64,000 nucleotides of DNA, taken from a virus. Its lineage: Duplodnaviria > Caudoviricetes. The translations under genes and the position numbers were made by a program. Every line of letters begins with the position of its first letter. The stretch's first letter is position 1. The notes under the pieces were generated by a model. That model had not been told where the DNA came from. It saw only the letters and a program-made list of their open reading frames with translations, and ran no database searches. Below, piece after piece: positions 2,690 to 50,592 of this stretch. The stretch lies in the IMG/VR virus record IMGVR_UViG_3300034061_005646, positions 1,155-65,154 of that record; one strand, written 5' to 3'.

Positions 2690-2696
2690 TGGTTAA

Positions 2697-3044
2697 TTAC
2701 TTTAGTTTTTTCTTAATAGTTAACTCGCCTTCTCCGGTAACAGTAAAACCACCTGCTTCTGTAACCGTAAGCTGTACAGTGTATTTACCTGGCTTAACCG
2801 ATTCATCGGTATTGTGTTGAGCAACTTTAAAAACACCGCCAGAAACATTTGTAATAGCTAATTTTGAATTAGCAGTGCTCATTTCAAGCTTTGGCTCAAC
2901 AGTATCAATATCTCTTGCAAATACCATTTTAATAGATGCGCCTGTTAACGAAGCAGCAACTCCATTTTTCTTATAATAGAAAATCTGATCATTGATAGTA
3001 TTACCGGCAACAACATCGCCCAAATTAAATGACTTAGTTTTCAT
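2697..3044 (-). CDS. BppU-N-like beta-sandwich tail adaptor protein
   Basis: 115 aa; SLTGASIKMVF...GKYTVQLTV...GELTI pattern resembles baseplate-upper-protein N-terminal domains; fibre-cluster context. Confidence 0.5.
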   Translation of the reverse strand: MKTKSFNLGDVVAGNTINDQIFYYKKNGVAASLTGASIKMVFARDIDTVEPKLEMSTANSKLAITNVSGGVFKVAQHNTDESVKPGKYTVQLTVTEAGGFTVTGEGELTIKKKLK

Positions 3045-3273
3045 TGCTTGCTAAATGAATGTAATATAATATAGTAACAGGGCACTTCAATTTTTTTTCA
3101 TAGTTCTCTTGTATTTTCTTTACAGCTAAACTATCCATAACCTTTGCCGGAGCATTTACACTATCAATAGATATTGTGTCGTTTATAAACTCTGTTTTAG
3201 TTATTCCTAAGAATACCTTCTTTTTAACAGCTATGCTGATGAAAAAGTAGTTTTTGTATTTTTTAGCTATCAT
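3034..3273 (-). CDS. Hypothetical protein
   Basis: 79-aa ORF overlapping both neighbours in the operon. Confidence 0.55.
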   Translation of the reverse strand: MIAKKYKNYFFISIAVKKKVFLGITKTEFINDTISIDSVNAPAKVMDSLAVKKIQENYEKKLKCPVTILYYIHLASNEN

Positions 3274-4394
3274 TTAAGTCTTATTAAAAATTTAACTGCT
3301 TGAACCGGGTGATACAAATTTACTTCTAATGGCTCTCCAATTGCAATACCTGTTACAACATGGTTATCAACAGAAACGGGTAAACCTCCTGAAAAACCTA
3401 CTGTATGACTATGGGAAAAATCTAATTGTTGAGGGCCAAGAGTAATATTTTGAATAAAATTTACCGCTATTTCGCCTGATGCTGTTCCTTCATGACTATG
3501 TGTTACATCAATCATAGTAGATCCGCTATATGCATGCATATGTTCTGGATCATTAACTGTATGTACTAATGATAATGTAATATTAACTTGGTATCCATCT
3601 GTATCAGGAATACTAAAATCAACAACTTGTTTTCCAACTCCTTCTGCATGTTCTGTTACCCATACGTCAGAATCTAATATATCATGAACGTGTGCTGTAG
3701 CTTCTTCAATTGTATCATTATGCGTATCTACTGTTATTCCTGTTGCAGCATCTTCTGTTGTTCCTGATATCTCAACTGTTGGTGTTCCATTATGAACATC
3801 GGTCCATGTTGTTGTAATGTCTGTCAAAGCCAAATCTACAATTTGACTGTCTGATAAATTTAATTCAATTTCAAATAAAACTGTATCTTGAAGAATGGCT
3901 TCAGAAACAATTGCCTCCATAGCAGAAAAATTTTCTGCAATAGCTACGTGAGGATCTATTTCTATATCAAGTACATGATTATGTGCAATATCTGCTGTTT
4001 CTGCACCTAGCTTTTGACCGACAACAATTCCCAAGCCATAACCTACAGGGCTTCTTCTTCGCAAATCAGGAACTAAAAAGTTACCATTGTCTTCACCGTA
4101 AGCATATCCGCAAGCTGCAAATGCTTCTGGATATTCCAAAGGATCGTAAGAATCACCATTGCACAATACATTATCAGTATCAGGTGCTTCATTTGGTGCA
4201 CCCATCCATATTTCTCCAATCTTGCGAAGATTGTTATTCGTAGTATATGATAAATCCCCAATGTTAAAATCGTACCGAACAAGAACGTCAAAGCTGTTTT
4301 TTATAATTTGCCTTGCACGAACTTCAGCAGGTTTTAATATTGAAGATGATAGCTGAAAAGCTGTACCAAAATCAGGTTTGACTACTTGTCCCAT
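3270..4394 (-). CDS. Tail collar domain fibre protein
   Basis: IGEIWM...LCNGDSY...YPEAFAACGYAYG...FLVPDLR...G.K.GAE collar motif, several HxH motifs, C-terminal PVQAVKFLIR. Confidence 0.75.
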   Translation of the reverse strand: MGQVVKPDFGTAFQLSSSILKPAEVRARQIIKNSFDVLVRYDFNIGDLSYTTNNNLRKIGEIWMGAPNEAPDTDNVLCNGDSYDPLEYPEAFAACGYAYGEDNGNFLVPDLRRRSPVGYGLGIVVGQKLGAETADIAHNHVLDIEIDPHVAIAENFSAMEAIVSEAILQDTVLFEIELNLSDSQIVDLALTDITTTWTDVHNGTPTVEISGTTEDAATGITVDTHNDTIEEATAHVHDILDSDVWVTEHAEGVGKQVVDFSIPDTDGYQVNITLSLVHTVNDPEHMHAYSGSTMIDVTHSHEGTASGEIAVNFIQNITLGPQQLDFSHSHTVGFSGGLPVSVDNHVVTGIAIGEPLEVNLYHPVQAVKFLIRLK

Positions 4395-14200: not shown

Positions 14201-17200
14201 ATCGTCAAGCAAAGCATCAAGCTTATTTGCTTGCATAAAATCGTACATCTTTTGAAGTATTGGATTAGACGCTGCTAATTCTTTAGTAAGCACTATTTGC
14301 ATCCCTTTGTGTGCAGTAGGAATACCATTTGCGTTTACTGTCGACATAGCATACTTATACTGACCTTCAAAACCCATTTGACCACCGACTGAAGTAGGTA
14401 TAACTTCATTTGCAAGCTCAGATAAGAACATTACCCCATCACCTACCTTAACTTCACCAAATGGTGTAGATATGCTTTCTTTACCACCAAACATATTCTT
14501 ATCCATAATAACATAGTTAAATGGAGCGTCTGCTGCTACTTGTGTACCTGGTGCATTAAACATTTTAGTCCTAACAAATGAATTTTCTTCATCCATGGCC
14601 ATAAAATGCTCTTGGTCTCCACGTAAGTATTGCATATGGTAATAGCGATTAAATTCACTATTAACCACAAACTCTTGCATTAGCGTAGGAATAGAATGGT
14701 TTGTAGCAAGCGCTTGACTTGGAGTATTGGCATTTTTTTTGTACCTGTCTATATCCAACAATGTTCCTATTGTGTTTTCGTTTATAAAATCCAATAAGCC
14801 TTTTGTAACTCCCGGAAGGTCAGCAATGGCTTTTACATCGTTTCCAAAAGATTGGCTATCTCCGGTTTTATAGTAATTCATATATGCTGCCATAACCATG
14901 TTTTTAGCAAGGTCTGCTTCAATAGGATTTTGAGCATTTGCAGGATTATAAAACCTTGAAAGTTGAGCATTTAAGTACTGCTCATACATTTTTTGTGCTT
15001 CTTGGTTAAGTCTGTTTTGGTCAAAGACAACTGTTCTTTTACCTGTTGCATCAGTTTTAATACTGAACATACTTGGTATGTGCTTTGTCATTTGAGCAAC
15101 ACTTAATGGATTACCATTTCTATCTGTTGCATTATCCACAGCAGTTTGAACTTCTGCTTTAAATAAATCAAGTGCGTTATGAGCGCTTGGTTTACCTGTC
15201 ATTATATCCATTCCGGCAAAAGCAACATCATTTGAGAACTGATATTCAATTCCTGACTTACCCATAACAGCATATAACCTTGCACCTGATACTGTATATA
15301 CCCTTGGTGAATCATTTATTTGCTCAATAAAATTAAAGGCATTTGTTCCATAATTTACTGAATTAAGATAATCTCCCATTAAAGTAAGAATAACCATTTC
15401 AGAAGTCAGCTTATCGCTTTCTACTGCATAATTCTTTCCTTTCTTAATGTTAAACTCTGAAATAGCAGATATGCTGTATTTTTTAGCAATGCTGGCTATG
15501 GCAACAAGTGGGTTATTGGCAAGTCGCTTCATTCTTGCTGTTGGACGGCCATTGCTTGTTTTACCACCAAAATGACGAACATCTTGATTATTAAGAACTA
15601 CGTTGTTTTCTTGAGATAGTGCTGAAAGAAACTTATCTTGATTTACTCGTTGTGCTGCTTTTTCAGCAACCCTGACAATGTTTAAGTTTCGGTTTGGCTT
15701 TTCAATAGCTGTTAGGTTTTTACCTAAACGAGAACTCCAATAACGGCTTTCTGATATAACCCCAAATATCTTTTTGTTTTTAGATATGTGTTCGGCAGCA
15801 AAGAAAGAGTAGATAGGATCCATTGAAGCATCACTCTTATTTTCTGTAAGGTTATAATACCTTGTAGCAATTTGTTTCAACGGTTTGATGTTTGGGCTAT
15901 TGTATTGCTCAACAACCTTTATAGCATCATCAATAGACTGTTCCAAAATACCACTACCGGCAACAATAAATCTTAAGCTTTGCAATCCTGCAATAATTTC
16001 TTTCTTATCCCCGGACTTTCTTCCGGCTTTTAATGCTGTTCTTGCATCCTGAAACATAAAGTTAAGACCATAGAGTCCTTTCTTAATCATTTCATTTACT
16101 TGCCGTTTAACATCATTTTTAACATCAGTTTCAATCTTACTTCTATTAGCGACATAAACAGATACCTTTCCACTTTTATCAAATGCAACAGCTCTTTTTT
16201 GAACTACGTTTTGAGCCATTGTAGTACTTAATGATCTCATAGTGTTTGCTGCCAAAAAAGGATTAACAACCCCATTAACTACGGAAGATTCATTTATTTT
16301 ATTAGATAGCTTATAAAGTACTTCGCCAATAGATTCCAATAACATTCTTGTGTTACTGTCTGTTATCGGATTAGTTTTGTTCGAAAGCCTTGCATTAATG
16401 TAATTAACAACTTCAAGGACATTTCTTGGTTGTCCGTTAATTTTGGTAGAAAACAAAGAAGCTATACCTGAAAATATGTATGTTACGTTTGGCGTTTGAG
16501 ACAACCCGGCTTTTTTCATCTTTTGCAGATAAACATAATGTGCAAGTTTACCTACTGCTTCAGCAGCTCTTGTATTTAAGTCTGGACCACCTTTATTAAT
16601 TAAATCAGAAAGGATTTGATCTCCATCAGATATAATCTCAGCAGCATCGGTAATCGCTTCGTCTATGTCTTGTATGGCTTCAATAGCTGAATAGTTTTCA
16701 ATGCCATAGCTTTTTCCAACTTCTTCAATAGCGGTTTTAACAGTGCTTGCAAAAGATTTGCCGTTAATAGCGTGATCTCTTGCAATTTGTTGTGAAGTTT
16801 GAAACAATCCATAAGAACCTTCAGTAGAAGATGCGCCTAATTCAATAAACGAAAGTATGTTGTTTAGTGCTTTGTAAAAAGGCTCCATTTCTCCTTGACC
16901 TTCAGTTGGAAACTCTCCGTTTCTTCTTCTTTCAAGGCTAATTTGCTTACCGTACAGAGAATTGATTTTTTCAATTGCTTTTTCAGCAAGCATTCTATGA
17001 AGCTTTTGAACATCTTTATCAGTAAGATTGCCACCATTTTTGTCATACATTTCCTTATACATCTTTGCATATTCGTTGTATGCACCCTGAATGGCGTTGA
17101 TAGCATTAAATTCTATCATTTCTTCGGTAGTGACTATACCTAATCCACCTTCTACTTGCGGATCAAACTCTTCATCAAATATTGGAGCTTCGTTACCTTC

Positions 17201-20200
17201 TTCCTCATTATACACAGATTCCGCTATTTGAAGCTCAGATAGCGAATTTTCAGAAGGAATTGGATTTGGTTCTGGTTCTGGTTCTTCCTCAAATACATCA
17301 TCTTCAACTGCTATGGCTCTTGGTTGAGCAGTTGGTTGCTTTCCGGCATTTCTTTCGTATTCTCTTAACACCTTTTGAGTGACAGCATTGATTTCTCGTA
17401 CTGTCATGTCAGTATTTTTAGATTCACTTAAAAGATAGCTTGCGATATCAGCTTTTGTAGGGTTTGTATTTCCCTGGGCATCAAAATATTCTTTTGTTTT
17501 CTTTTTTATTTCACTGTCGTTTGGACGTGGTTTTTTACTTGTCTTAGCAACCTTTTCTTTTGACTTAGGAAAAGCTGGGCGCTTGTCTGTATCTTTTACA
17601 TCGGCAACTGTTTTTGGTTGCGCTTTGCCTTGCTTAATAACTTTAGTGTCATTCTTGGCAATACCATTAGTGGCTGATTTAAGGAATTCTTTTACAACCT
17701 TTCTTTCAGAGCTTGTAACATCAAACACACCTTCAGACTCCATTCGGTCCATAATCTCCAAATCGGTTAATCCTTCAGCTTTGTATGACTGAGCAAGTTT
17801 AGCAACATCATCATTTGCCTTAATATTCTCAACACCTTTAATTGGTGCACCTGAATTTTGGGATTTAAGCCTTTTCATTACTTTTTGTGCAGGCTCAATT
17901 TCAACTTCTTCGTTAGCTGCTATTTCTGTATCAGCATCAATTCTTCTTGCAGGTGCTGAAGCATTAGCATTTGTTGTTTTTGAAGTAGTGCTTTTTCCTT
18001 CAGACGGTTTTGCTGTAGCCTGTTCTGCCGCTTTAGCTTTTTGATCTTGTTGATACTTTAGCTCATTTAAACCTATAAGTTGATTATTTACAGTTTGAAG
18101 CTGTTGGTTAGTATATAGCTTTTCATTTTTAAGAACCTGAAGTTCAGACTTTTTTTGTTCTTCAGTTAAAGATGTATCTGCTGATACCGTAGCTATTTGA
18201 GCGTCAAGCTGTGCAGATTTTTCAGACAAGGCTGTTTTTTCAGCATTTACTCTAGTTATAGTTGATGGTATAAGACCATCTTTAACCGATTCCTCTGTTG
18301 GAGTGTTTGCAGTTACTTCAAGCTCTTGTAAAGCAGAAGCGACCTCTTGTGTGAGGCCAATTTTTTTTTGCTCTTTTTGTATTGTCTGAAGCTCTGATAC
18401 CTGTCTTTTAGCAGCATTTTGAACAACCTTATTTTTCTGTTCTTCTTGAGCATTTGTAAATTGAGTATTTACAGATTCTTTTACTGCTGCTTGTGCTATG
18501 TCTGCTTTTTGTTTTTCAAGGGCTGATATTTGATTTTGTACAGCACCAATAATAACCGGGTTGTTTTCTGCTTTTGCTTGTTCTAAAAGAACTTGTTGGT
18601 TTTTAATTTGATCTTGCACTTGAGCATATTGCATAATCTGCTCTTTACTTGCATTAAGCCCAGATGTTTTTAACATTCTGTTTAATTCGTTATATTGATA
18701 AAGCTTATCAATATATGGCTTAACCTGTTCTTCTGTTTTTATTCCGCTTTGCACAAGCTGTCTAAATCCTGCTTCTGCTGAATTTAAATCGCTTGCAAGA
18801 TCATACATATAAGAATCTACTGCTTGCCCTCTTGAACCCAAAGACATTGCAGTAGTTGATAATAATGTAGAAGCCAACATTACACCAAGGTCTCTAATTG
18901 TTGGCAAAACATCTTTGTAAACTTCTTGTCCGGCTGCAAGGTTTGTCATGTATTTGTTGGCTGTTTCTCCAATCATTGCTCCCGTTTCTTCAATTGCTTC
19001 GGCACCAAAACTTGACATTAATATTTTACCGCTTTCGGTAAGCTGTCTCATTTTTCCACCTTTAAGAGCATCAAACCATTTTTTGCCATTAGCTGTATAT
19101 ATCCAACCTTCGTCAAAAATACCTTCACTCATTACGTTAACAAATGCGTCTGCTGTTGCTTTTTTACCTGCAATAGATACAGCTTCTTCAACATTAATTC
19201 CTTTTGTCGTTAAGTTATCTAATTCATCTTCAAATGCTGATTGATATGTAGATGCATAGGTTAAATATGTTGATGGAGACATTACAGTGTTTACCAAATA
19301 GTTTAATGCAAAATTTCCAATTTTTGCTGCTCTTGTACCTGATTGCAAGCCTGAGTATAGTCTTGCTATATCTGCTACTGCTTTAACCCTTGAACCCGCT
19401 CCAATCGTTCCACCTAGCATAATTGGTGCAGACTGTACTGTAGTGCTCCAAACATCTAAGATAAAGTTTTCTGTTGGAGAGTATTTTTCTTGTCTTGCTT
19501 CGGTCCTTCTTTCAATGTTTGTTTTTTCTTCGCCAAGGTATTTATTTAACGGTGGCGCAATAAAAGTGGCCAAGTCTAATCCAAAACTCGTTAAAGCATC
19601 TTCTGCTTCTGTTTTAAAAACTCCACCCGTTGCATCTCTTAATGCTCTGTTTTGCGTTTGAATTTCTTTTTTAAGCCTTTCTTCAGCAACGCGAGGATCG
19701 TTGTTAATTGCTTCATAAATTTTATTGAATTCATTATGAGCAATTGATGCTTGTTCAAGCTTTTTTATTTCTTCAAGTTCTTTACCATAAGGCAAAAGCT
19801 TTTCATTTATTTGCTTTTCAAGCAACGGAAGCTGTTCATTATAATATTTTTCATAAACAGCTTTTTGTTCTGGGCTAATAGGCCCATTGATTAAAGATTC
19901 ATATCGCGCTTTTTCTTTTTCAAGTTCCTGTTTTTGGGTATATAAACTTAAAACTTCACCAAATTTCTTTTCTCCAATTTTGGCAACTGATTGCTGAAAT
20001 ACTTGTTTTTGATATTCAAGTTCTTTTATTCCAATTTCAGTGGCAAGTGCTTGAAACTCTAATCCGGTTTGCCCTGGTCTTCTTTCAAGCTGCTTTTTTC
20101 TTTGATCAATGACATTAAGTTTTTTTTGGTATTCTTCTCCTTCTGTACTTAAATTAACTCCATCATCAAGCGCATTCATTGGCTTTTTAACCATGTTTTT

Positions 20201-20656
20201 GCTTTGAGTGGTAGTTCTATATTCTTCAGCTTCTTGTTCAAGATCTGTAAGATTTTTATAGTTGAGGATTCTATTAGACAATTCCGGATATCTTGCTGCT
20301 CTTTTAGCCAAGGCATAGATTTGCTCACCAGACATAGCTTTTGTATCCCATGACCAAGCAAGTTTATGAATAAGCTCTTTTATTTTTTTTTCTTCTTCCT
20401 CTTGACTTGATGGATCTACAGGCTCAGGTATGCGAGAATTTTTGTTATTAATCAATGCTCCTTGTGGTGTTTGACCAACAGGATTACCCCATTTGCTATT
20501 TACAAGCTCAGGGAAAGAAGATGGCTGATTTAAAGCAGGCTTTTTCTGATTTGGATCACCACTTGATTCAACCGTTTCTAATGCATTTTGAAGAGCACTA
20601 GACTCTTCTTTTGTCTCATTTATAATACCGCCAATAGTTTTTTTTTCGTTTTCCAT
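5249..20656 (-). CDS. Giant virion RNA polymerase polyprotein (crAss-like two-barrel RNAP plus zincin domain)
   Basis: 5135 aa. Beta-like barrel motifs GDG...YK...HK...M...D...S.EKIG (about 14190-14445), beta-prime-like KVP and DNDGD (13343-13357), HEAVH zincin motif (9185-9199) with downstream DEMIAY. Follows the muzzle and ejection genes as in crAss-like phages. Confidence 0.85.
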   Translation of the reverse strand: MENEKKTIGGIINETKEESSALQNALETVESSGDPNQKKPALNQPSSFPELVNSKWGNPVGQTPQGALINNKNSRIPEPVDPSSQEEEEKKIKELIHKLAWSWDTKAMSGEQIYALAKRAARYPELSNRILNYKNLTDLEQEAEEYRTTTQSKNMVKKPMNALDDGVNLSTEGEEYQKKLNVIDQRKKQLERRPGQTGLEFQALATEIGIKELEYQKQVFQQSVAKIGEKKFGEVLSLYTQKQELEKEKARYESLINGPISPEQKAVYEKYYNEQLPLLEKQINEKLLPYGKELEEIKKLEQASIAHNEFNKIYEAINNDPRVAEERLKKEIQTQNRALRDATGGVFKTEAEDALTSFGLDLATFIAPPLNKYLGEEKTNIERRTEARQEKYSPTENFILDVWSTTVQSAPIMLGGTIGAGSRVKAVADIARLYSGLQSGTRAAKIGNFALNYLVNTVMSPSTYLTYASTYQSAFEDELDNLTTKGINVEEAVSIAGKKATADAFVNVMSEGIFDEGWIYTANGKKWFDALKGGKMRQLTESGKILMSSFGAEAIEETGAMIGETANKYMTNLAAGQEVYKDVLPTIRDLGVMLASTLLSTTAMSLGSRGQAVDSYMYDLASDLNSAEAGFRQLVQSGIKTEEQVKPYIDKLYQYNELNRMLKTSGLNASKEQIMQYAQVQDQIKNQQVLLEQAKAENNPVIIGAVQNQISALEKQKADIAQAAVKESVNTQFTNAQEEQKNKVVQNAAKRQVSELQTIQKEQKKIGLTQEVASALQELEVTANTPTEESVKDGLIPSTITRVNAEKTALSEKSAQLDAQIATVSADTSLTEEQKKSELQVLKNEKLYTNQQLQTVNNQLIGLNELKYQQDQKAKAAEQATAKPSEGKSTTSKTTNANASAPARRIDADTEIAANEEVEIEPAQKVMKRLKSQNSGAPIKGVENIKANDDVAKLAQSYKAEGLTDLEIMDRMESEGVFDVTSSERKVVKEFLKSATNGIAKNDTKVIKQGKAQPKTVADVKDTDKRPAFPKSKEKVAKTSKKPRPNDSEIKKKTKEYFDAQGNTNPTKADIASYLLSESKNTDMTVREINAVTQKVLREYERNAGKQPTAQPRAIAVEDDVFEEEPEPEPNPIPSENSLSELQIAESVYNEEEGNEAPIFDEEFDPQVEGGLGIVTTEEMIEFNAINAIQGAYNEYAKMYKEMYDKNGGNLTDKDVQKLHRMLAEKAIEKINSLYGKQISLERRRNGEFPTEGQGEMEPFYKALNNILSFIELGASSTEGSYGLFQTSQQIARDHAINGKSFASTVKTAIEEVGKSYGIENYSAIEAIQDIDEAITDAAEIISDGDQILSDLINKGGPDLNTRAAEAVGKLAHYVYLQKMKKAGLSQTPNVTYIFSGIASLFSTKINGQPRNVLEVVNYINARLSNKTNPITDSNTRMLLESIGEVLYKLSNKINESSVVNGVVNPFLAANTMRSLSTTMAQNVVQKRAVAFDKSGKVSVYVANRSKIETDVKNDVKRQVNEMIKKGLYGLNFMFQDARTALKAGRKSGDKKEIIAGLQSLRFIVAGSGILEQSIDDAIKVVEQYNSPNIKPLKQIATRYYNLTENKSDASMDPIYSFFAAEHISKNKKIFGVISESRYWSSRLGKNLTAIEKPNRNLNIVRVAEKAAQRVNQDKFLSALSQENNVVLNNQDVRHFGGKTSNGRPTARMKRLANNPLVAIASIAKKYSISAISEFNIKKGKNYAVESDKLTSEMVILTLMGDYLNSVNYGTNAFNFIEQINDSPRVYTVSGARLYAVMGKSGIEYQFSNDVAFAGMDIMTGKPSAHNALDLFKAEVQTAVDNATDRNGNPLSVAQMTKHIPSMFSIKTDATGKRTVVFDQNRLNQEAQKMYEQYLNAQLSRFYNPANAQNPIEADLAKNMVMAAYMNYYKTGDSQSFGNDVKAIADLPGVTKGLLDFINENTIGTLLDIDRYKKNANTPSQALATNHSIPTLMQEFVVNSEFNRYYHMQYLRGDQEHFMAMDEENSFVRTKMFNAPGTQVAADAPFNYVIMDKNMFGGKESISTPFGEVKVGDGVMFLSELANEVIPTSVGGQMGFEGQYKYAMSTVNANGIPTAHKGMQIVLTKELAASNPILQKMYDFMQANKLDALLDDSTEKIGAEKRTAIEWDSNADLPTEVNVHTANYGDIYIQLPTNESQSNRFSSDPDQKNKQSPLYVDSSNPKSVAALKKLQNAVSNKINASVANATLESKNFTEMVNEYRKIASPLAKKLQADKIIDFLRKQSKNESEAVRSMYENIIQKIKSGYNFEYDEGLLYQIQAAKFKQAMKSKMKSMYMAVTSPLLTIDGQTNNTPKYRIDPNNTENGISEMVVPERFKDVFAEFADENGDIYVTGIKVPYNNAATQIRAKLVFSEALNGNGSMVIPPLEFYSLSNSDNDGDRIFIYPIHKEPKKLLRYLTDRGFSIDENTTTDQLINMVNDYNDTRGKNKEIKLSTALAVFKTYQDAVENEANMELFEGKFGNEMQEQVNDVNDFLRVIEREGYTGKAKTTMSNSGMIQRNAEIQNSKNGIGKAAASIRVINLAVSMASKARVQFRPKGATQVNFSINNINFDMATFEGIPFVTNEMKQQFGLKSNAVNIEEMNQIAEERARQILNDKYQNDKKKQDDQFPYEYKKQQDLIAETFISAMYKENQKRLQNSTSQVLQIFVDAVKKGYLNKPGVNDMNMSAFILLGTRIGMMKGLTNNSIETGMSVAVNFINQPIIKKYYEMAERNSLIADEYEQQSYQLFDNIKADLRSRIAGTPYEEMLDNNTVNLSAIDSEYGLKHVQDIDYTSDLGMVGANNDYTIAQIEAVKTLGVLLDMQKAIDPLSLNTKKFDDIPVSIEESRTFISEMEKIGVLATDDEVDNVLHGIQKGKSAEEIATENTRGWLRTPMSFGTRFLGSSLTGQDQIKFDTNHNEAIAKLNEINQALSTKKGPLMESLLNKGLNYDGATAYLKYIAKVYANEVISGNRHILEDPIMFAKAEGFFTAMSVIGSSITAHSPKINRMIHKFVSNIIKSTSGQVFQKAVSRFQDAFSRVAMGEEIKKKIDNILKPEEKQNFSYAMNKVLTALYDNRSAIASNGFIKFLESREYQSVYQEPIRNENGLPVYDEKLYKQDSGIFKEVDGQKIELPENATFADFEIALRNNPIEAAKIMMAIVISQNEYQFDVYADPSSGTLFNSVTGQEYIIQDEAIVENQANDLDVLSNTQPNNFIDQAIKTFAETALATNEPFGEATAEQWFVAMSSYLSTFNPNKPSPRHQKPTNQSILLSQGGMTDFTSDQLAEIAEGINNLFAALGNPILDSDGNEVGTVMDKVITALENEALPTSFADERIISDPYMWIQYFNEQMSYKQSRNLLGIIRQDAGIYQVDVVKDLNKAWNNSHEDNFFEYANDALLKEPTMAYQITGSQITNMETGNAKDIKWASAHEYVHHRNENNGEITLYKRIQSGYINTNGKKGTAKSPNYLFVPIATYSENGDVTVLKGNNDMPLSSFQDIVSIPANSQFDNMSVADFKRAVFESIHAITGNSLETMNLLSDVLKNIEIKGVKSINNKDFITLAIKELQKASIGSPSVQTKTGNTITARNVNKLIEALKTIQEISAMNQPGQQMFVDTNKYSQITSKPSQQEKTKERARRFTMRNVAGTNQNNRTSWSETKLSALDIVNNISKYVTGSSISLRGKSINENLKSRGIEANTLSQVIKAYQEQLNANPFVADIAKKFTDVIGEVKTNVLTQKEFEDAEANAFGTQNPNPNTKAFFYNGEIYINGDSKSLDAPMVVIHEAVHAWITDAIYEAEQAQPGDAYYDLKETVLDLANVLGKVVSALPANASGVQAKVKNIWEDPQLAGNNFARVDEMIAYMMSDTTGEMQEYFARINPDLTGTQLQNYVGSDKSLFGRIRNFIFKVFKMRSAATTAQPIQDANLYEIITNILSYNEDLFTVESLIPPTLQSGKYTTVGQYTFDNANAIIDNMEADGMNAETYENAANRIPGQTRKDIQDFVKGIIPEANKLLNRGIKEMLSGNSVTNLSNILASYTAGHGSISNHAADALDRGGFAKQVTDYLRIKNEQYDAYLSNRPTYSIGLELAVDGNIVSVGPNGELNINTASFNIGENESGAALPAFDSLSFNERKQLYAAGIQAVLLEQQGEKIGTVRLFQNDLAISGSMSTKEYSMETLRPMIKEMIVQNHIENGFSKAVFSRVQEEFAISGEGVYSSFFLKKLGKNLPDLTEQDRQQLRDDLLDKDLQNDALEATVTGYINAYNNIRNFVQSGKIMDLTKADTVELLGHVQRLRMLPNDAQNGFTNNMRVVAEALTEAITLQTEQNTIRNQIVNAKQGKINSIISSITTSLNQISPDYKIDFIQDEIMNTMEQNDREMLKWKLKYSKLVDQVAKEKFGRAYRGRKIIGRFPLFNSFSNSLLNNLLEPGSGSVLVQKLKSLDAGISELQNGTMTQAEFDVLQHMNEFYAKYGRYIYNNTGIFHGGGMGEGSQLLGEPDGQASYYIPYYPSGVLNRYKTGKGTLNKFMTWWYEAYHNTNIQDDRKIESYTLPSGRVLKNVTAREIMREAAADEKIGESPLSEKNISDIYTMTHKIGGEFWTRRKGESTRAGTESLALPGMIRTSQDLREPDLFKTFMNYADEVKKAKTFTESRGLYYAGEMLLLNEKNPGLAKFLINDMKTRILNKKFEQSNETLLTKAIDFSVTAARLSMLGFSWIGGAVDLTATTITSMSAYNGMGKESNKPWVKLLGTYAGPVNMVPALLKSVYYFQELRDVALAFGMFNHRDLSTGDISIVGTTKAAMMMPYWISGNMPRLMMLADQLSIGDLEQIRQYKKDNVYTGGVKGMLEILSGDKTPTDILGMPEGEVLKVKRAIDYVEHNLGKFRNSTERMYLSNSYLNAAMQFKSWAPDYFWSRFGAEYNMNGVTLGGKYRMVAKHLAGVKTINPEQKHQAISNATWGGIITGLAMWAMIDIGDDDEKDFWSKQFKGVKIGNKSGKELFKSTMQQVMVLAEDNLVYNLSKTLPALSWMASLVELASNSISYTLQSFGTDGWKRSKKSKYGPKKSSKIPENALRALPASRMTLQYLEKNKPKSSSGVYGGY

Positions 20657-44646: not shown

Positions 44647-45396
44647 ATGACAACCACAAATCAATCAAAACCAGCAAGCAAAAGAATCAAAATCACAAAA
44701 AAGGCAAATGTTGAAAATGCTATTCCGGCCACGTCTAATGTGCCTGTAGCTGTTGAAACACCTGTGCAAACAAAACAGAAAGCATTTGCTGTTTATGCAC
44801 ACATTTCCAATGGTAAAATCAACAACATCGTTGTTATTGACGCCTCTTTTCAACTGAACCAATCTGATATGCGTATCGTTGGAGAAACGCATGATCGCAT
44901 CGGAACTATCCATGCGAATGATCTATTTGTGAAAATTCACAAAGGGTTTGCCGGTAAAGATGAACCTAATGGTAAGCAATATGCTTGCCATGAAAAAGGA
45001 AAGTACATCCCTTATGAAGACGGAAACCTTCGCAAGATGTATTTCATGTGCCGTTTAAAGAAAGACTTGGCCATTGCACGAGATATCATGCAAAGACCGA
45101 TTATTGATCCTAACACAAAACAACCAATGACTTGTGAAGTACACAAGGTTGCAATCGCTTCGCTTATCAATACTGGTAAGAAAGAAGTAATAGATGAAAT
45201 GCTTAAAGCGCGTTGGACTATGCCATTTGCCATCTATACCACAGATGAAAAGGCAGTGTTCACGTTCTACACCATTGCGGGTAACAAATACTTTGTTCGC
45301 CCAAGCGATGAAGCTCCCAAAAAAGCTATCAAAAATGATGCAGTTGTTGAAAAATCTATGGAAGTTGCTACAGCAACTGATGATATGCCTTTTTAA
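44647..45396 (+). CDS. Hypothetical protein with SSB-like C-terminal tail
   Basis: 249 aa ending in TDDMPF. Confidence 0.6.
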   Translation: MTTTNQSKPASKRIKITKKANVENAIPATSNVPVAVETPVQTKQKAFAVYAHISNGKINNIVVIDASFQLNQSDMRIVGETHDRIGTIHANDLFVKIHKGFAGKDEPNGKQYACHEKGKYIPYEDGNLRKMYFMCRLKKDLAIARDIMQRPIIDPNTKQPMTCEVHKVAIASLINTGKKEVIDEMLKARWTMPFAIYTTDEKAVFTFYTIAGNKYFVRPSDEAPKKAIKNDAVVEKSMEVATATDDMPF

Positions 45397-45434
45397 GATA
45401 GCCTTTTATTATCCAAAACATAAAAAATAGAACC

Positions 45435-45470
45435 AATGGTGAGGGGAGTAATCCCCTTGCCATTTAATTT
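45435..45470 (+). terminator. Intergenic hairpin/terminator
   Basis: AATGGTGAGGGGA-GTAA-TCCCCTTGCCATT followed by TAATTT. Confidence 0.55.
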
Positions 45471-45477
45471 CAAATCA

Positions 45478-45750
45478 ATGTCAAATAAAAATAAGTTAGA
45501 GCAGTATCAAAAAATGTCAGTCAATTGTGAAAATATGAAAATGCATATTTCACAATTAAAGACTCTTTATGAAATCGAAAATCGGAATGATTTTAAAGTT
45601 CTTTTATCTGGAGATGACAGAGTATCTGTGCCTGTAGATTTAGGAATCAAATTAGTTAAAGAAATGATCAAAGAGTCCGAAAACTGGATAAATAAAGAAG
45701 CAAAAGACTTAGAATTTAATAGATCTTTATTAGATAAATTTAAACAATGA
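45478..45750 (+). CDS. Hypothetical protein
   Basis: Part of ORF 45436..45750; start moved past the hairpin to MSNKNK. Confidence 0.6.
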   Translation: MSNKNKLEQYQKMSVNCENMKMHISQLKTLYEIENRNDFKVLLSGDDRVSVPVDLGIKLVKEMIKESENWINKEAKDLEFNRSLLDKFKQ

Positions 45751-46058
45751 AAAAGCTAATCACAAAGTTTGCAGGCATATTGCTTGCTTTTGCAGTATGG
45801 GTAATCAACAATTCCAGAGAAGAAAAGTTAAAACAAACAATCTTATTGGATGATGGAATCTATGAGATTAAGCAAGTTGTAGTTACAAACACCAACCCAT
45901 CAATAGACTCAGGACGGCAAAAGAATAGGATAGCTGATGAAATAAACGAAAGCGTAAGAGGTTATATCAAATATTCAGAAGCTTCTTTTAAGAGTCCTTA
46001 TTCCGGTCCGACTATAACAGGACATACCGGTGAGATACTAGTATTAAAAAAAGTATAA
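45747..46058 (+). CDS. Hypothetical protein with N-terminal hydrophobic segment
   Basis: MKKLITKFAGILLAFAVWVI; ATGA overlap. Confidence 0.65.
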   Translation: MKKLITKFAGILLAFAVWVINNSREEKLKQTILLDDGIYEIKQVVVTNTNPSIDSGRQKNRIADEINESVRGYIKYSEASFKSPYSGPTITGHTGEILVLKKV

Positions 46059-46177
46059 TACTAGGTAATATAAAAATAGAAATATTTTAATTTTCTAGAT
46101 GATTTATCAATCATCTTTTCTCTAAAGACAATGCTCTAAAGAGCATGTAAAACCTTTACCTAGAGTATAGATTGAGA

Positions 46178-46447
46178 GAAAAACTGAAGAGTGAGTGAAT
46201 ACCTTCCCCTTACCCGTAAGGGGTTGGTCACTTGCTTCAGTTACCATTCACCTGTCATATGAGTTGGTCGAATGTACTGCTATGTATGAGGCATATAGGT
46301 CTACATAGTTGAGAGGCTACTTTCAAGGGCTATACCCCCTGTTGATATCCTACGGCTCCCTCTCTTTGTGCCACCGTTGCGCTTGCATCATTCCCTCAGT
46401 AACGCTTTATTTCATCGATCGCTGACGTCTTTAACCCGACCAATCGA
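46178..46447 (-). ncRNA. Candidate structured non-coding RNA (about 270 nt)
   Basis: No ORF of 60 aa or more; consensus promoter upstream; several nested inverted repeats; long 3' hairpin followed by a U tract. Confidence 0.6.
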
Positions 46448-46451
46448 ACAC

Positions 46452-46482
46452 CAAAGGTAAAAATCGATTTGCATTTACCAAA
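46452..46482 (-). promoter_or_regulatory. Bacteroidota consensus promoter firing into the non-coding region
   Basis: TTTG-N19-TACCTTTG. Confidence 0.75.
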
Positions 46483-46499
46483 TCAATAGAATAATTTTA
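46468..46499 (+). promoter_or_regulatory. Overlapping divergent promoter for secreted-protein gene
   Basis: TTTG-N20-TAATTTTA, one mismatch to consensus. Confidence 0.5.
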
Positions 46500-46521
46500 C
46501 ACTATCAATTTGAAAATCAAA

Positions 46522-46878
46522 ATGAAAAAGTTCATCATGTTTTTGTTTGCATTATGCCTGGGTGCATTTGTAAACGAGGTTGCCGCTCAATCCCTAAACT
46601 ACGAGCAAGTCACGACAAATCAAACGGTTAAACCACAGACGATCAATGTTTATCAGAACATTTACGGGGTCCAGAGTCCTTTGCCCTCACAGGTAATCAA
46701 AGAAACTCCCGGATCTAGTCAACTAAACAAATCCTACGGTGTGTATAATACTTATCTTGGATCTCCTGAGCCGTTGCCATCAAAAGTCATACAAAAAAAT
46801 GGTAATAGTTGGGAAGTATACAATACATATTTAGGAGTGCCGGTTGGATTACCAATACAGAGTATATTGCTCGAATAA
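46522..46878 (+). CDS. Secreted protein with three internal repeats
   Basis: Signal peptide MKKFIMFLFALCLGAFVNEVAA-Q; three VY....G....LP...I repeats. Confidence 0.75.
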   Translation: MKKFIMFLFALCLGAFVNEVAAQSLNYEQVTTNQTVKPQTINVYQNIYGVQSPLPSQVIKETPGSSQLNKSYGVYNTYLGSPEPLPSKVIQKNGNSWEVYNTYLGVPVGLPIQSILLE

Positions 46879-46901
46879 TTAAAACAATTTTACGAAAAAG
46901 G

Positions 46902-46930
46902 AAAAGCCATGCGAAAGCATGGCTTTTTTT
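46902..46930 (+). terminator. Intrinsic terminator (bidirectional form)
   Basis: AAAAGCCATGC-GAAA-GCATGGCTTTTTTT. Confidence 0.85.
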
Positions 46931-46956
46931 ATTATTAAAATAGAAAAAATTATATA

Positions 46957-46964
46957 TAAATTTG
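46957..46964 (+). promoter_or_regulatory. Bacteroidota -7 promoter box
   Basis: TAAATTTG-TATC-ATG (46969), directly after a terminator. Confidence 0.6.
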
Positions 46965-46968
46965 TATC

Positions 46969-47193
46969 ATGATAACAAATATTGGCCAATTAAAAGAAAT
47001 GCTTAAAGGTATACCAGATGATACCAAGATAGCATCATTGTGTAAATCGACTGAGTACTTCCCAATTAAAGAAGTGCAATTAGTTAAAGAGCGCGGTACA
47101 GGAAAATCAATTTTGATGATTATTCCAACAAACGTATCTTTATCGGACGAATTACTATACGAACAATGCAAAGAGCTACAAACAGCCTATTAA
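46969..47193 (+). CDS. Hypothetical protein
   Basis: 74 aa; IGQLKEMLKGIPDD N-terminus common in small phage proteins. Confidence 0.65.
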   Translation: MITNIGQLKEMLKGIPDDTKIASLCKSTEYFPIKEVQLVKERGTGKSILMIIPTNVSLSDELLYEQCKELQTAY

Positions 47194-47525
47194 CGCAAAA
47201 ACCTTCGATTGCAGAGCCAAATAATTATTTTGGAATATCTGAGTCTAGGCCATGCATTTTCTGCCATAAGGAGATTTATACGCATGAATTAGAAAAGAAT
47301 AAATCTGAATACAGAATAACACAATATGGAGCATACCACACCAACTGCTTTTTATCAAGTACCGATGTTTCACGAATACATCACAGGGAAAGTTTGCCAA
47401 TACTGCGACCAGAAAACAGAATTACTGCTTTCTTCAAAAGAAATTTATATGGTAGATTATGGGCCGGTTTATATTTGTCGAAGATGCAAAGCATACGTTG
47501 GTTGTCACAAATCTGGAGAAAATAA
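47166..47525 (+). CDS. Possible zinc-binding protein (CxxC...HxxC)
   Basis: CIFC...HTNC; the C-terminal half overlaps the next gene out of frame. Confidence 0.4.
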   Translation: MQRATNSLLTQKPSIAEPNNYFGISESRPCIFCHKEIYTHELEKNKSEYRITQYGAYHTNCFLSSTDVSRIHHRESLPILRPENRITAFFKRNLYGRLWAGLYLSKMQSIRWLSQIWRK

Positions 47526-47781
47526 AGGACAAAGCCTTGGAGTTGTTGCTAACAAAGAGTTAAGACAATGGAAAATGCAAGCTCACAAATTCTTTGATGC
47601 ATTGTGGCAACATAAAATGAAATCCGGGATTAAAAAACACGAAGCCAGAAAAATGGCTTATCAATGGGTATCAGAAAAACTAGACATTCCTCCATCTTAC
47701 ACCCATATTGGAATGTTTGATATAAAAACATGCAAAGCATTGATAGCATTATGCGGACCATATTATAACAAAATTACTTGA
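47326..47781 (+). CDS. DUF3268-like zinc-finger protein
   Basis: CQYC...YICRRCKAYVGCH...LG..AN.ELR..K..AH..FD.LW...AY.W....L.I....THIGMFD...C. Start may be 47365. Confidence 0.75.
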   Translation: MEHTTPTAFYQVPMFHEYITGKVCQYCDQKTELLLSSKEIYMVDYGPVYICRRCKAYVGCHKSGENKGQSLGVVANKELRQWKMQAHKFFDALWQHKMKSGIKKHEARKMAYQWVSEKLDIPPSYTHIGMFDIKTCKALIALCGPYYNKIT

Positions 47782-47782
47782 T

Positions 47783-47983
47783 ATGAAAGTAAAAGTTGAA
47801 GTTACCGATGAAGCTGGCAATGTTCAGCAATACGATGTTAGCAGCAGTGCTTTATATGATGCACTTGCAAGGCTACTCGGATTAATTGAAGTAAGACCTA
47901 ACCAATGGGTAAATGAACACGGAGAATACTATGCGCTTACGAAATATGGATTTAAACGATATGGTGTTGGGTTGCGGTCGTAG
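47783..47983 (+). CDS. Cassette 1 hypothetical protein
   Basis: 66 aa; reads through the GTT box as YDVSSS; stop overlaps the inverse box. Confidence 0.6.
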   Translation: MKVKVEVTDEAGNVQQYDVSSSALYDALARLLGLIEVRPNQWVNEHGEYYALTKYGFKRYGVGLRS

Positions 47984-48062
47984 CATTGCTGCTAACGGTT
48001 TCGGGCTTTGTGTCCGTTGGCGACTTTAACCACAAATGTTAAATTGAAAAACAAATATTGAT

Positions 48063-48311
48063 ATGAGTACAAATGATGAATTGAAAAACGAAACCGCCAA
48101 TGGCACAAAACCCGTGTTATATGCCGTTGCGGATGTAATCGGTTTTCGTTACAAAGGTGGTAGATATGTAAAAGGTGAAATATTGAGAATAGACCCTAAA
48201 GGAATATTGATAAGGTTAAAAACCGATTACATTGGTAAAAATGAAGAATGGTATACTGGTGAAGATAAATATTTCAATAAAGCTGAAATGAAGCGTGTCA
48301 GCAAGCAATAG
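48063..48311 (+). CDS. Cassette 2 hypothetical protein (small beta-rich domain)
   Basis: 82 aa; starts inside the attC-like loop and reads through the GTT box as KPVLYAV. Confidence 0.65.
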   Translation: MSTNDELKNETANGTKPVLYAVADVIGFRYKGGRYVKGEILRIDPKGILIRLKTDYIGKNEEWYTGEDKYFNKAEMKRVSKQ

Positions 48312-48426
48312 CATATAACGCAAAGCTGGGCGAAGGCCGTAGGCTTATCGCTCAGCGACCGTTATACGAAGTTCCGTAGCCATTGCATTGGCCCAGAGCA
48401 GGAATTTCGTAATAGAAATAATAAAA

Positions 48427-48777
48427 ATGCAAATGAGTAACGAAACACAAGAGTTGAAGCTCGAATCTGAAGAAAAAAAATTTCAAGCCAAAATCTACAT
48501 TTTTAAAGGAAGAGGATTTCTATGTCCTCATTCACAACTTCAACCCGGTCAGGTAGTAATTGGAACACCCGATGGTGAGAATGTAGATCCACTGAAGAAA
48601 TATCGATTTGTTATTACCCTTGATGGTGAAACAGAGTCCGTATCAAAGTCAAGACTGCTTTTTGTAGCAAGCGTAAAGGTAAAATGGATGCGAAAACCAT
48701 TAACAACAGCTATGCAGGAAATGCAAGCTAGAATGGATGCAGCAATAGAAGAATTTAATAAATTCATCAAATCATAG
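48427..48777 (+). CDS. Hypothetical protein
   Basis: Part of ORF 48388..48777; ATG 48427 or 48433 preferred. Confidence 0.6.
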   Translation: MQMSNETQELKLESEEKKFQAKIYIFKGRGFLCPHSQLQPGQVVIGTPDGENVDPLKKYRFVITLDGETESVSKSRLLFVASVKVKWMRKPLTTAMQEMQARMDAAIEEFNKFIKS

Positions 48778-49053
48778 ATGAAACAACTAAGGCTTGACAT
48801 ATTTCCAAAACCACAAACACAAAAACAAATTCATTACTCTGAATTACCAATTGATCAAAAGATAAACCTTAAAGCAAATAGTGCAGGGTTTGCTTTATTA
48901 TGGATTAAATCATGCCTTTTTTGGAAAATAAAGTATGAAGGTTTTATTTATCGTGGAGACAAACATGATCATCTTTCTGAAAAATGGTTTTGGCACCACA
49001 AAGTCAATAACAAGCACAGAATAATAAATAAAGGAAGAATAGACTTAATATAG
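48778..49053 (+). CDS. Hypothetical protein
   Basis: 91-aa ORF adjacent to the upstream stop. Confidence 0.55.
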   Translation: MKQLRLDIFPKPQTQKQIHYSELPIDQKINLKANSAGFALLWIKSCLFWKIKYEGFIYRGDKHDHLSEKWFWHHKVNNKHRIINKGRIDLI

Positions 49054-49060
49054 TAAATCA

Positions 49061-49771
49061 ATGAAATACATTCATAAAAAAACCAAAGCGATTGCATATC
49101 AATCTGACCTAAATCCAGATACCTATGTCTTTATTATGCCGGATAAAAACATGTACGCTATACCAAGAGAAATAATAGAAATATCAAACGATTGGGAAGA
49201 ATATAACCATACACCAGAAAACATAAAACAGCTTATGGACGTCCCTTGCTTATCAATTAATGAAATAGCAATGGTTTATAAAACTGCCAATAGAGAACAT
49301 CACAAATCAGAATGGGGGTTGGATGATAATGCTAGAAAGCTTGTAAAAATGGTTCTAGAAAAGGTAATGGGAGAAAATATTGAAATAGGACTTGCTGAAG
49401 GAAAAATAACAACAGAGTCTTCAAAAACCGAATTGCCTTTATATCCAAAAATTATAACATTAAGGGAAAGACAAGACCACAGCTTTAAATATAGAGTACA
49501 AACTTTTGTAAAGCCTGATAGCGCACCAGAGGGAGTTTATTTATTGGTTGAAAGAATCACTATTCATAAACCAGCAGTAACAGCTTTGTTTTCAGAGGTG
49601 GTAGAAAAAGATAAAACGTCTTTTATATCAGAAGGTTGTCAAATCATTAATACAATATATGATGAACGAAAACCCGGCCCTTGGCTTTGTACAGAAACAT
49701 ACATAAAGCAACATGTCCAAAGACTAATCAACTTATCACAAAATAATAACTTTCAATTTCAAATTATATGA
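49061..49771 (+). CDS. Hypothetical protein
   Basis: 236-aa ORF in operon. Confidence 0.7.
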   Translation: MKYIHKKTKAIAYQSDLNPDTYVFIMPDKNMYAIPREIIEISNDWEEYNHTPENIKQLMDVPCLSINEIAMVYKTANREHHKSEWGLDDNARKLVKMVLEKVMGENIEIGLAEGKITTESSKTELPLYPKIITLRERQDHSFKYRVQTFVKPDSAPEGVYLLVERITIHKPAVTALFSEVVEKDKTSFISEGCQIINTIYDERKPGPWLCTETYIKQHVQRLINLSQNNNFQFQII

Positions 49772-50028
49772 AAGGCTTAATTCACAGAGAAGAAGGAAAA
49801 AAGATATTTACCTTTGTTTCGATTGAGGATTCAAAAAAAATGATAGAAGATGGATTCAAAGGACCTTTCTATGGAAGATACGCGCTCAATTCAATATTCA
49901 AAGATCCTGTTCTATTTGGCAGTTTTCCACACCCACTTGAAACCTTAAGAACATGGAAAGAGTTTCCTGAAGATGGTTGCATACCGCTTGCAACATTAGA
50001 TCAATACAACGAATTTTATAAAAAATGA
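49768..50028 (+). CDS. Hypothetical protein
   Basis: 86 aa; ATGA overlaps at both ends. Confidence 0.65.
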   Translation: MKGLIHREEGKKIFTFVSIEDSKKMIEDGFKGPFYGRYALNSIFKDPVLFGSFPHPLETLRTWKEFPEDGCIPLATLDQYNEFYKK

Positions 50029-50318
50029 AAAACAGCATTCAAAACTTCACCGAATTCGAATACACGGCAAAAGACCAGGACTCACTTGAAGTCATTACTG
50101 ATGTAGTTCTTATAAATGACGAATCAACAATTCCAATAGAAGATGTTATCAAGTCTTACATAAAAAGACACCCTATTATTTCCCTTAATGGAAATACATG
50201 GAGTTTGGAAGGGTATCAGCCAACAGGAAAAAGAATAGAAAAACAAGTAACATACACTGTTACAAGCCAAAGATCAGACGAGTTTGATAAAGTATATCCA
50301 ATAGTAGATGGCCTTTGA
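50025..50318 (+). CDS. Hypothetical protein
   Basis: 97-aa ORF in operon. Confidence 0.65.
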   Translation: MKNSIQNFTEFEYTAKDQDSLEVITDVVLINDESTIPIEDVIKSYIKRHPIISLNGNTWSLEGYQPTGKRIEKQVTYTVTSQRSDEFDKVYPIVDGL

Positions 50319-50592
50319 AAACCTTTACAAAACCTCTGAGAAACTTAGAGATTTGTATCTTAAACAAAAAGCGATTGAAGACAAAGCTTATGAGTCCAAT
50401 GATCCTACCGCTCGTGATGTTGCGAGAGCAGCACAACACAAAATGAGCGCATATTTGGATAGTATTATCATATTCTACGAAACAACGCTACAGCATGGCA
50501 AATTCGTAAGCCAGCGACATCATTGTAAAAGAATGATATTAGAAATGAATCAAGCCTTTGGAGAAGGCTATTTCAAAAACAAAAAGTTGTGA
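50308..50592 (+). CDS. Hypothetical protein
   Basis: 94-aa ORF in operon. Confidence 0.65.
   Translation: MAFENLYKTSEKLRDLYLKQKAIEDKAYESNDPTARDVARAAQHKMSAYLDSIIIFYETTLQHGKFVSQRHHCKRMILEMNQAFGEGYFKNKKL

Follow-up and report, generated by a model that had tools for sequence, protein, structure and literature searches.

A probable integron-like cassette array in a lake-water phage, with relatives linked to XerA-like recombinases in Bacteroidota and phages

Integrons are the textbook device for gene capture and reshuffling. The boxes of their attC sites follow the consensus RYYYAAC and GTTRRRY, and in chromosomal integrons these sites are homogeneous. Xer-type recombinases also move gene modules, as with pdif on Acinetobacter plasmids, or act on a folded single-strand hairpin, as at the attP of the CTX phage; the dif layout is a 28-bp core arranged as 11-6-11. 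In the portions of the literature drawn on here and below, canonical integrons are nearly absent from the Bacteroidetes (IntegronFinder 2.0; PMC9024848). Clusters of attC sites lacking integron integrases (CALINs), attC-like sites and methyltransferase cassettes occur in virulent phages, including Polaribacter phage P12002L, and IntI1 recombined five of six phage sites (Qi et al., 2023; PMC9892861). In T4-type phages, the mobile regulatory cassettes termed PeSLs, composites of an expression motif and a stem-loop motif, lie beside small genes of hyperplastic regions that the phage can do without and mark points of gene gain, loss and replacement, and mini-circles are reported (PMC2839356, PMC4122927). 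Here we describe a locus in a phage from lake water, IMG/VR record IMGVR_UViG_3300034061_005646, of which a stretch of 64,000 nucleotides (positions 1,155 to 65,154) is called the window. The locus lies between a DUF3268 zinc-finger gene (47326-47781; Pfam 2.4e-30) and an open reading frame (ORF) termed ORF3 (start 48427), and is probably a short, recombinase-less mobile cassette array of an integron-like site-specific system of Bacteroidota and phages. This system looks like an undescribed integron analogue, in which the window array looks CALIN-like, with two cassettes. The original prediction, made from the letters of the window, had proposed integron-type cassettes, perhaps of a distinct Bacteroidota/phage system acting in trans. 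A site family, covariation, cassette differences and a linked recombinase speak for the distinct system; a canonical integron it is not.

The array alternates units, which are gene bodies enclosed by complementary arms, with modules, which are hairpins. Unit 1 (47837..47996, + strand) is the body of ORF1, unit 2 (48116..48319, +) is that of ORF2, and between them lies module M1 (47997..48115, +), an imperfect hairpin of 119 nt with stems at 48002-48022 and 48095-48114 and with TAAC and GTTA flanks. M1 is read as an attC-like site. The boxes of unit 1, GTTAGCAGCAGTGC(T) at 47837-47851 and (A)GCATTGCTGCTAAC at 47982-47996, are 93% complementary over 15 nt, and those of unit 2, GTTATATGCCGTTGC at 48116-48130 and GCAATAGCATATAAC at 48305-48319, are 87% complementary over 15 nt. 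Seen as arms, GTTAGCAGCAGTG pairs with CATTGCTGCTAAC in unit 1, with a G.T at position 11, and GTTATATGCCGTT with AATAGCATATAAC in unit 2, with one mismatch plus the G.T. Minimum-energy folds contain the M1 stem with its one bulged base, as well as the stem of a second module, M2 (48325-48333 with 48348-48356). Both ORF1 (66 aa; 47783..47983, +) and ORF2 (82 aa; 48063..48311, +) stop inside an AAC-side box. Boxes, stems and stop codons are all as first claimed from the letters of the window.

What gives these repeats their meaning is the family to which they belong. Loci were found in IMG/VR by searching with the two small window proteins, and the tandem arrays of the window's layout reach about nine units per fetched stretch. 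Over 82 distinct units, the left-hand logo reads T-GTTA-K-N-N-G-C-W-G-T and the right-hand logo A-T-T-G-C-N-N-M-TAAC-G. The arms are 13 nt long with the general form GTTA-K-N-N-G-C-W-G-T ... A-T-W-G-C-N-N-M-TAAC, and at arm position 11 a G stands opposite a T in 96% of units. The 56 distinct spacers between units are all long imperfect palindromes, with lengths clustering at 79-82 and 115-122 nt. As modules they have invariant TAAC and GTTA, an unpaired spacer of 5 nt versus 1 nt, stems that covary and measure about 20 bp, and loops between 30 and 75 nt long. The imperfect hairpins between cassettes, with an R-box, unpaired spacer, stem and variable loop, resemble those of integrons. Unlike in integrons, the R-box is 13 bp long with a fixed G.T, and the boxes do not fit the attC consensus. 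The family flanks hundreds of other small genes, which is what had been predicted for a true site family.

The arms pair across whole genes. Nineteen of the 22 distinct boxes found after M1 have a complementary partner ending in TAAC within 1300 nt, while swapped controls give 41 of 458. When units are defined by their two flanking hairpins alone, 49 of 74 have arms that pair, whereas 200 partner shuffles average 3.8 and never exceed 10. For the hairpins, a covariance model (R1) was built from 16 short modules (alignment A3). R1 makes 134 matches in 312,540 bases of loci, and its sole match in the window is M1 (53 bits, E 3.7e-8). In the R1 alignment, which is fitted to the model and hence leans towards structure, 92.5% of cells are paired versus 62.3% in shuffles and 30-48% in slid controls, and the covariation score of 0.651 (vs 0.148) was attained in none of 500 shuffles. 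In a MAFFT alignment, 14 of 19 pairs already have compensatory changes. The AT-rich modules of the phages Freya, Leef and Ingeline escape R1; their hairpins were shown by folding and their arms by script. A new model scanned over phages and Bacteroidota had been suggested as a check, and R1 has matches in both.

A tyrosine recombinase accompanies these arrays. In loci L013, L020, G018 and G001, its ORF begins 46-52 nt past the last TAAC, on the array strand. The strongest evidence of linkage is a reciprocal test, in which an alignment of four enzymes (A5) yielded 264 IMG/VR relatives: in the best 80 of these 264 loci, which were fetched, all 203 of 203 R1 matches lie on the recombinase strand. 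An independent structure finder places 255 modules upstream on the same strand and 6 on the opposite strand, versus 2 and 1 downstream, and a module is present in 55 of the 58 recombinase loci having more than 1500 nt upstream. The last TAAC is 36-57 nt from the recombinase start codon in 43 of 55 distinct loci. In 34 of these 43 it is followed by TA, with the consensus TAAC/TATTATATAT (here and below, a slash within a motif marks the junction), while an internal TAAC is followed by G in 85%. TAAC/TATTATATAT would be a distinct primary site, an attI analogue by position and behaviour only; it is also the very junction where near-identical phages diverge. The layout recalls integrons, where a recombinase of the Xer/IntI clade adjoins the array, pointing away from it as it does in phages here, and a distinct primary site shares the common GTT and AAC core. 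Unlike in integrons, the cassette genes run in the direction of the recombinase.

At 37-50% identity, the recombinase has relatives overwhelmingly in Bacteroidota genomes (at least 515). Among the best 80 of these loci, which were fetched, R1 modules are found in 14, and 21 of their 23 matches lie downstream on the opposite strand, so that the array and the recombinase are convergent, which is again unlike integrons. Pedobacter glucosidilyticus DSM 23534 has three canonical units, and its last TAAC/TA is 85 nt from the 3' end of the recombinase gene. The enzyme is best described as XerA-like. In the PDB it matches 4a8e best (a single stretch of 128 bits, XerA aligning end to end), and among NCBIfam models the XerA one scores highest (160-192 bits, cut-off 220); TIGR02249 gives 94-153 bits (cut-off 265) in two stretches, and all NCBIfam scores are below cut-off. 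In the alignment to VchIntIA, 32 aa of the recombinase stand opposite 80 aa of IntI, and therefore the IntI-specific insertion of integron integrases is lacking. The original prediction had noted that no integrase is present in the window and had advised a wider search for a tyrosine recombinase. That search came up empty in the record itself and succeeded elsewhere, at array ends in other phages and in Bacteroidota genomes. In Freya phages, an HNH endonuclease gene directly follows the array-linked recombinase (L122 4969-5592 in Freya_10; L123 872-1495 in Freya_1). The recombinase stop in L013 is overlapped by a 113-aa ORF, and in L029 (8765-9010) the N-terminal domain alone (residues 2-83, 37% identity) sits inside an array, like a remnant.

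Close relatives differ by whole cassettes. In seven freshwater pairs, the recombinase regions are 96-100% identical and divergence sets in exactly at TAAC/. A cassette that is internal in L082 and L052, with G and a module after it, takes the terminal place in L084 and L059, where the TA-site comes next; L052 and L059/L060 differ by a permuted order of cassettes. The junctions of these moves fall exactly at TAAC/, with merely 4-5 nt of shared sequence. The cultured isolates of Polaribacter phage Freya, which have a 38% identical “integrase”, are otherwise about 100% identical and differ just upstream of that gene. Freya_5 is Freya_10 minus 903-4100, with the junction ...CCAAC/ACCCC, Freya_6 has other cassettes in that place, and Freya_1 and Freya_8 are without further blocks ending at AAC. 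The Freya arms are GTTGG...CCAAC or GTTA...TAAC and keep the G.T at position 11, and the spacers, 118 nt long, fold as long hairpins. For near relatives of the window phage, presence and absence come from one contig comparison (run X3): contigs of a lake relative cover 45274-47787 and 48316-50585 and not 47788-48315, with cover resuming at TAAC; this relative diverges from 47788 onwards and appears to carry different content in place of the window cassettes. Stretches without contig cover in runs X2 and X4 were not counted as evidence. Loose contig ends at the edges of M1 (47995 and 48119-48127) occur in three lake runs. As in integrons, cassettes are gained, lost and reordered as units at the GTT and AAC core (Freya; L082/L084; L052/L059/L060; the X3 relative), variation is concentrated near the recombinase, and enzyme-less arrays, the CALINs of integrons, occur too. 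Variation at the boxes had been anticipated for related phages; whole cassettes do differ, with breakpoints at AAC/ rather than at GTT of the + strand.

Variation limited to the region just upstream of an integrase, as in Freya, would also suit an ordinary lysogeny integrase with its attP just upstream, the variable genes being “morons” brought in by imprecise excision or illegitimate recombination. The enzymes of Freya, Leef and Ingeline are indeed annotated as integrases, and in the parts of the paper on Freya phages cited here, which give a size range, the integrase is taken as temperate potential (PMC8776804); that paper uses neither the term “variable region” nor the term “indel”. We regard this explanation as very unlikely. 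The linked enzymes are short (265-289 aa) and Xer-like, and according to the cited portions of PMC8138268 such “simple” enzymes, which have no arm-binding domain, resolve dimers, recombine integrons or belong to non-conjugative elements. Imprecise excision would not make ordered arrays of covarying arms and hairpins, nor does it account for one cassette at different array positions, and in the window a crAss-like phage carries an array with no recombinase.

The modules also recur in unrelated phages, with mosaic edges. Block 47993-48120 of the window recurs in the IMG/VR loci L003-L006 at 92-95% identity, with sharp edges at TAAC and GTTA; block 47778-47996 recurs in L007-L009 and ends exactly at 47996; block 47778-47842 is found in L010 and block 48144-48304 in L001. 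The right-hand portion of the module upstream of unit 1 (M0) is 92-95% identical in L007-L010, joined to unit 1 in L007-L009 and to a different unit in L010. Exact copies of a 19-mer of M1 are present in three contigs of metagenome-assembled genomes and in 24 IMG/VR stretches, which have 22 distinct sequences downstream of M1. Genes neighbouring the M1 loci show no homology to the neighbours of the window locus, and the window capsid protein was not found in any of five other array contigs. Such near-identical copies serving unrelated genes recall the homogeneous attC sites of chromosomal integrons.

Sharp edges and 92-95% identity across unrelated phages, together with terminal inverted repeats of about 25 nt on M1 and further ones on the units, are also what selfish non-autonomous elements would display. 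Under this explanation, which we hold to be extremely unlikely, modules and units would resemble miniature inverted-repeat transposable elements (MITEs), REPINs or PATEs served by a transposase in trans. The Y1 transposase (PF01797) is absent from the window record, and five aligned copies, compared without a systematic check, show no evident target-site duplication at the edges of M1. The stems covary instead of staying identical, and modules and units alternate strictly, in one orientation, beside a tyrosine recombinase. For the IS200/IS605 or REP/RAYT families, the missing PF01797 and a linked enzyme that is a tyrosine recombinase lead to rejection. The arm-less homologues of ORF2 in L001 (about 2870-2900) and L002 (about 3290-3320) adjoin sequences resembling a tRNA T-arm and 3' end (of the GGTTCGAATCC type).

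Gene starts tie the hairpins to expression. Of the 82 units, 36 have an ORF that begins within the module loop, most commonly 53 nt before GTTA, and in about half of units the start codon and some 18 codons lie within the hairpin loop; the hairpin would therefore also be an expression module. In the other 46 units, the longer ORF lies wholly within the arms, on the array strand, in 41. Stop codons come either 1 or 13 nt ahead of where the unit ends, a CACAAATGTT motif is common to the loops, and the module hairpins are without a T run. Unlike in integrons, the hairpin lies upstream of its gene and often holds the start codon. Some cassettes carry N6_N4 DNA methyltransferases, and ORF clustering around arrays brings out RecT, YqaJ, NinG and the short tyrosine recombinase. 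A shufflon or inverton is rejected on orientation: the ORF is on the array strand in those 41 of 46 leaderless units, with the exceptions in arrays of opposite orientation, and upstream modules share the recombinase strand in 255 cases versus 6.

The strand that folds can be read from the wobble pairs. Among 2007 stem pairs on the + strand, G.T plus T.G number 219 and A.C plus C.A number 56, and this excess points to the + strand as the one selected to fold. In the integron frame it is the “bottom” strand. In integrons too, that strand folds better, and each cassette starts with bases complementary to the AAC-side box of the same cassette. The better-folding strand here is also the mRNA sense strand, with start codons in the loops, so an RNA-level role fits these pairing data too, which counts against the recombination reading. 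Hairpins and arms might then be standardised elements of translation initiation, processing or stability in mRNA that insulate the cistrons from one another, with mosaicism produced by homologous recombination between conserved modules, the process proposed for the PeSLs of T4-type phages, and the recombinase as unrelated cargo or a lysogeny integrase. The starts within loops, the same-strand ORFs inside arms and the common loop motif agree with this, as do half-modules that recombine in loops (L032) and the RecT, YqaJ and NinG genes close to arrays; PeSLs, moreover, are reported to drive modular shuffling and mini-circles in the passages cited (PMC2839356, PMC4122927). We nevertheless think it unlikely as the whole explanation, since it leaves unaccounted for the recombinase start at a set distance past the last TAAC (43 of 55 loci), the separate conserved terminal site, and the 255 modules upstream on the recombinase strand against 2 downstream. 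Nor does it explain why cassettes switch between internal and terminal positions exactly at TAAC/ with so little shared sequence. The two roles are compatible, and the module may serve both.

The preferred reading, an integron-like array, can be set out as a mechanism. A cassette would consist of a hairpin module (about 80 or 119 nt) plus the unit that follows it, running from AAC/ to AAC/, where the original prediction had it run from one GTT to the next on the + strand. The module, flanked by TAAC-G and T-GTTA, would carry expression signals in its loop, often a start codon. A full platform ends with the gene of a XerA-like “simple” recombinase after the last cassette, behind the primary site TAAC/TATTATATAT. 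Viewed on the minus strand, the layout corresponds to that of an integron in each of its parts: the recombinase points away from the array and is followed by an attI-like site ending in G/TTA; cassettes begin with TTA and end with an R''-like box (arm plus TAAC), the hairpin and G, and their first bases are complementary to their own R'' (AAC-side) box. The recombinase would exchange strands within TAA/C (G/TTA on the other strand) on folded single-stranded DNA, with the arm duplex and the hairpin base as its two binding arms and the unpaired spacer as the central region. The cut at G/TT foreseen by the original prediction is compatible only with a reading on the minus strand, as TAA/C. Cassettes would leave as circles and re-insert, by preference, at the primary site. 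The comparisons show the site family with its covariation, the mosaic edges, the linkage to the recombinase, and the gain, loss and reordering of cassettes at AAC/; what we infer is that single strands fold, where in TAAC the cut falls, and that cassettes pass through circles. The window phage could obtain the enzyme from its host, from a co-infecting phage or from the 43% of its genome that is missing. We lean, if only slightly, towards the full model: a Bacteroidota/phage integron analogue with a XerA-like enzyme lacking the IntI insertion, a hairpin that is both recombination site and expression module, and recombinase-less arrays served in trans.

Several observations weigh against it. Within the window, inverted repeats are at chance level: those of 14 nt with at most one mismatch number 7 against 8.5 expected, those of 15 nt with at most two mismatches number 41 against 41.4, and 11 of 30 dinucleotide shuffles reach the local cluster of 4 in 600 nt. 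As DNA, M1 by itself folds with z = -2.0 only. The significance of the array therefore comes entirely from the comparison with other genomes, and chance, which fits the window-only statistics, is ruled out by the comparative tests (arm pairing, covariation and recombinase linkage). No tyrosine recombinase (PF00589) is present in the whole 65,154-base record, and scans of whole contigs, mostly fragments, find PF00589 in only 2 of 20 array contigs, both matches adjoining a second array. The insertion that the recombinase lacks is called essential for integron function in the cited part of PMC8138268. The endpoints of the Freya deletion have 7-13 nt of similar arm sequence, making short-homology deletion possible, and no circle junction or excision joint at the window locus was seen among assembled contigs, the only data searched for them. 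Mosaic edges occur also at T/GTTA, and half-modules recombine inside loops (the L032 hybrids), therefore ordinary homologous recombination also acts on the arrays; RecT and YqaJ genes near arrays fit homologous recombination between modules. The L032 hybrids (500-618 and 1234-1351) match in sequence the left arm of M1 with the right arm of another module some 700 nt off, and the reverse; this looks like a crossover within the conserved loop, nesting two units in a split hairpin.

Against this background, the described systems can be placed. A full-text literature search found no description of a recombinase-linked architecture, the nearest being the CALINs in phages (PMC9892861). That study used attC detectors and IntI1, and its cited portions report no Xer-like recombinase, cross-gene arm pairing, primary site or large family. 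On the early-gene strand of its phage P12002L, five units show the arm signature in which position 11 is a G.T. By function, the closest phage counterpart is the PeSL: in the passages used, PeSLs recombine homologously between promoter-terminator motifs (PMC2839356, PMC4122927), whereas here there are covarying long-range arms, invariant TAAC and GTTA, and a linked tyrosine recombinase. The system differs from Xer/dif modules by sites that combine long hairpins with arm duplexes and by an enzyme that the element itself encodes; a dif-like 28-bp core was not recognised by eye at the junctions and logos, no dedicated search having been run. A known RNA family or tRNA is ruled out: Rfam gives nothing at gathering score (six weak E-value matches in 47000-49000, none overlapping the array), and ARAGORN finds no tRNA at the locus. 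The crAss-type virion RNA polymerase transcribes single-stranded DNA (10.1101/2020.03.07.982082, in the part cited). A promoter for it was rejected as the principal explanation: arrays also occur in phages without a detected window capsid and in bacterial genomes, where the polymerase was not searched for.

The remaining parts of the window locus follow the same plan. M0 (47778..47836, +) carries the ORF1 start codon (47783) and 18 leader codons and ends in T/GTTA; it is non-canonical as a hairpin here because the end of the DUF3268 gene replaces its left part. ORF1 has 94% aa identity in L007-L009 and no family in Pfam or PHROG. The M1 loop holds an AT-rich region and the ORF2 start codon with 17 leader codons, so that residues 1-17 of ORF2 are a module-encoded leader; residues 1-22 alone reappear ahead of unrelated gene bodies. 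Residues 18-82, to judge from their conservation, are a small protein of unknown function and the body a real protein: residues 18-81 are 80% (L001) and 60% (L002) identical to ordinary genes without leader and without arms. A perfect 14-nt inverted repeat (48133-48146 / 48219-48232) lies inside the ORF2 coding sequence, nested in the arm stem of unit 2. M2 (48320..48360, +) is a short module of 41 nt without a start codon, its hairpin GCTGGGCGA / TCGCTCAGC closed by TAACG...CGTTA. It is followed by U3 (48361..48415, +), an empty degenerate unit with arms GTTATACGAAGTTCC / GGAATTTCGTAATAG, a 25-nt loop, no ORF and the end TAAT instead of TAAC. Folded together, M2 and U3 give z = -3.1 as DNA and -5.4 as RNA.

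The record (65,154 bases) is 57% complete by CheckV. The label “crAss-like” given to the phage is a loose fit only: its major capsid protein is about 23% identical to its nearest known relatives, which are crAss-like phages, and a giant ORF of 5135 aa (5249-20656, - strand) has the size of the virion-packaged giant proteins of such phages. A nucleotide search with 47300-48900 against 50,697 phage records found no match. The DUF3268 gene has one distant IMG/VR relative (L039, with no R1 module) and none in metagenome contigs, and for ORF3 no relatives were found. Elsewhere in the early region, one minor contig assembled from the source sample, at depth 4 versus 17, lacks the small gene 45436-45750 over 45448-45745 and has 30 other letters instead; the gene is also absent from the X3 relative (skip 45476-45746), and the ends are not GTTA or TAAC boxes. 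The X3 relative also has 72 other letters in place of 8 bases at 49051-49060 and, in the same early region, a diverged stretch of 117 nt at 50090-50208, unchanged in length. Region 46100-46460, which has few ORFs, G+C of up to 0.51 in a genome of 0.36, and no tRNA or Rfam match, could be an unknown RNA gene.

If the integron-like reading is correct, unrelated phages of shared hosts could trade ready-to-express small genes, such as those of DNA methyltransferases, and a new route of gene flow would connect unrelated phages and hosts. The system would fill the near-absence of canonical integrons in Bacteroidota, and the early regions of flavobacterial and crAss-like phages, rich in “ORFans”, would have a mechanism behind them. 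Nature would also provide a case in which an enzyme of the Xer type does the work of integrons although it has no IntI insertion, which bears on the origins of integron integrases. Cultured material exists in the Freya isolates, which already differ by cassettes, and in Pedobacter glucosidilyticus DSM 23534.

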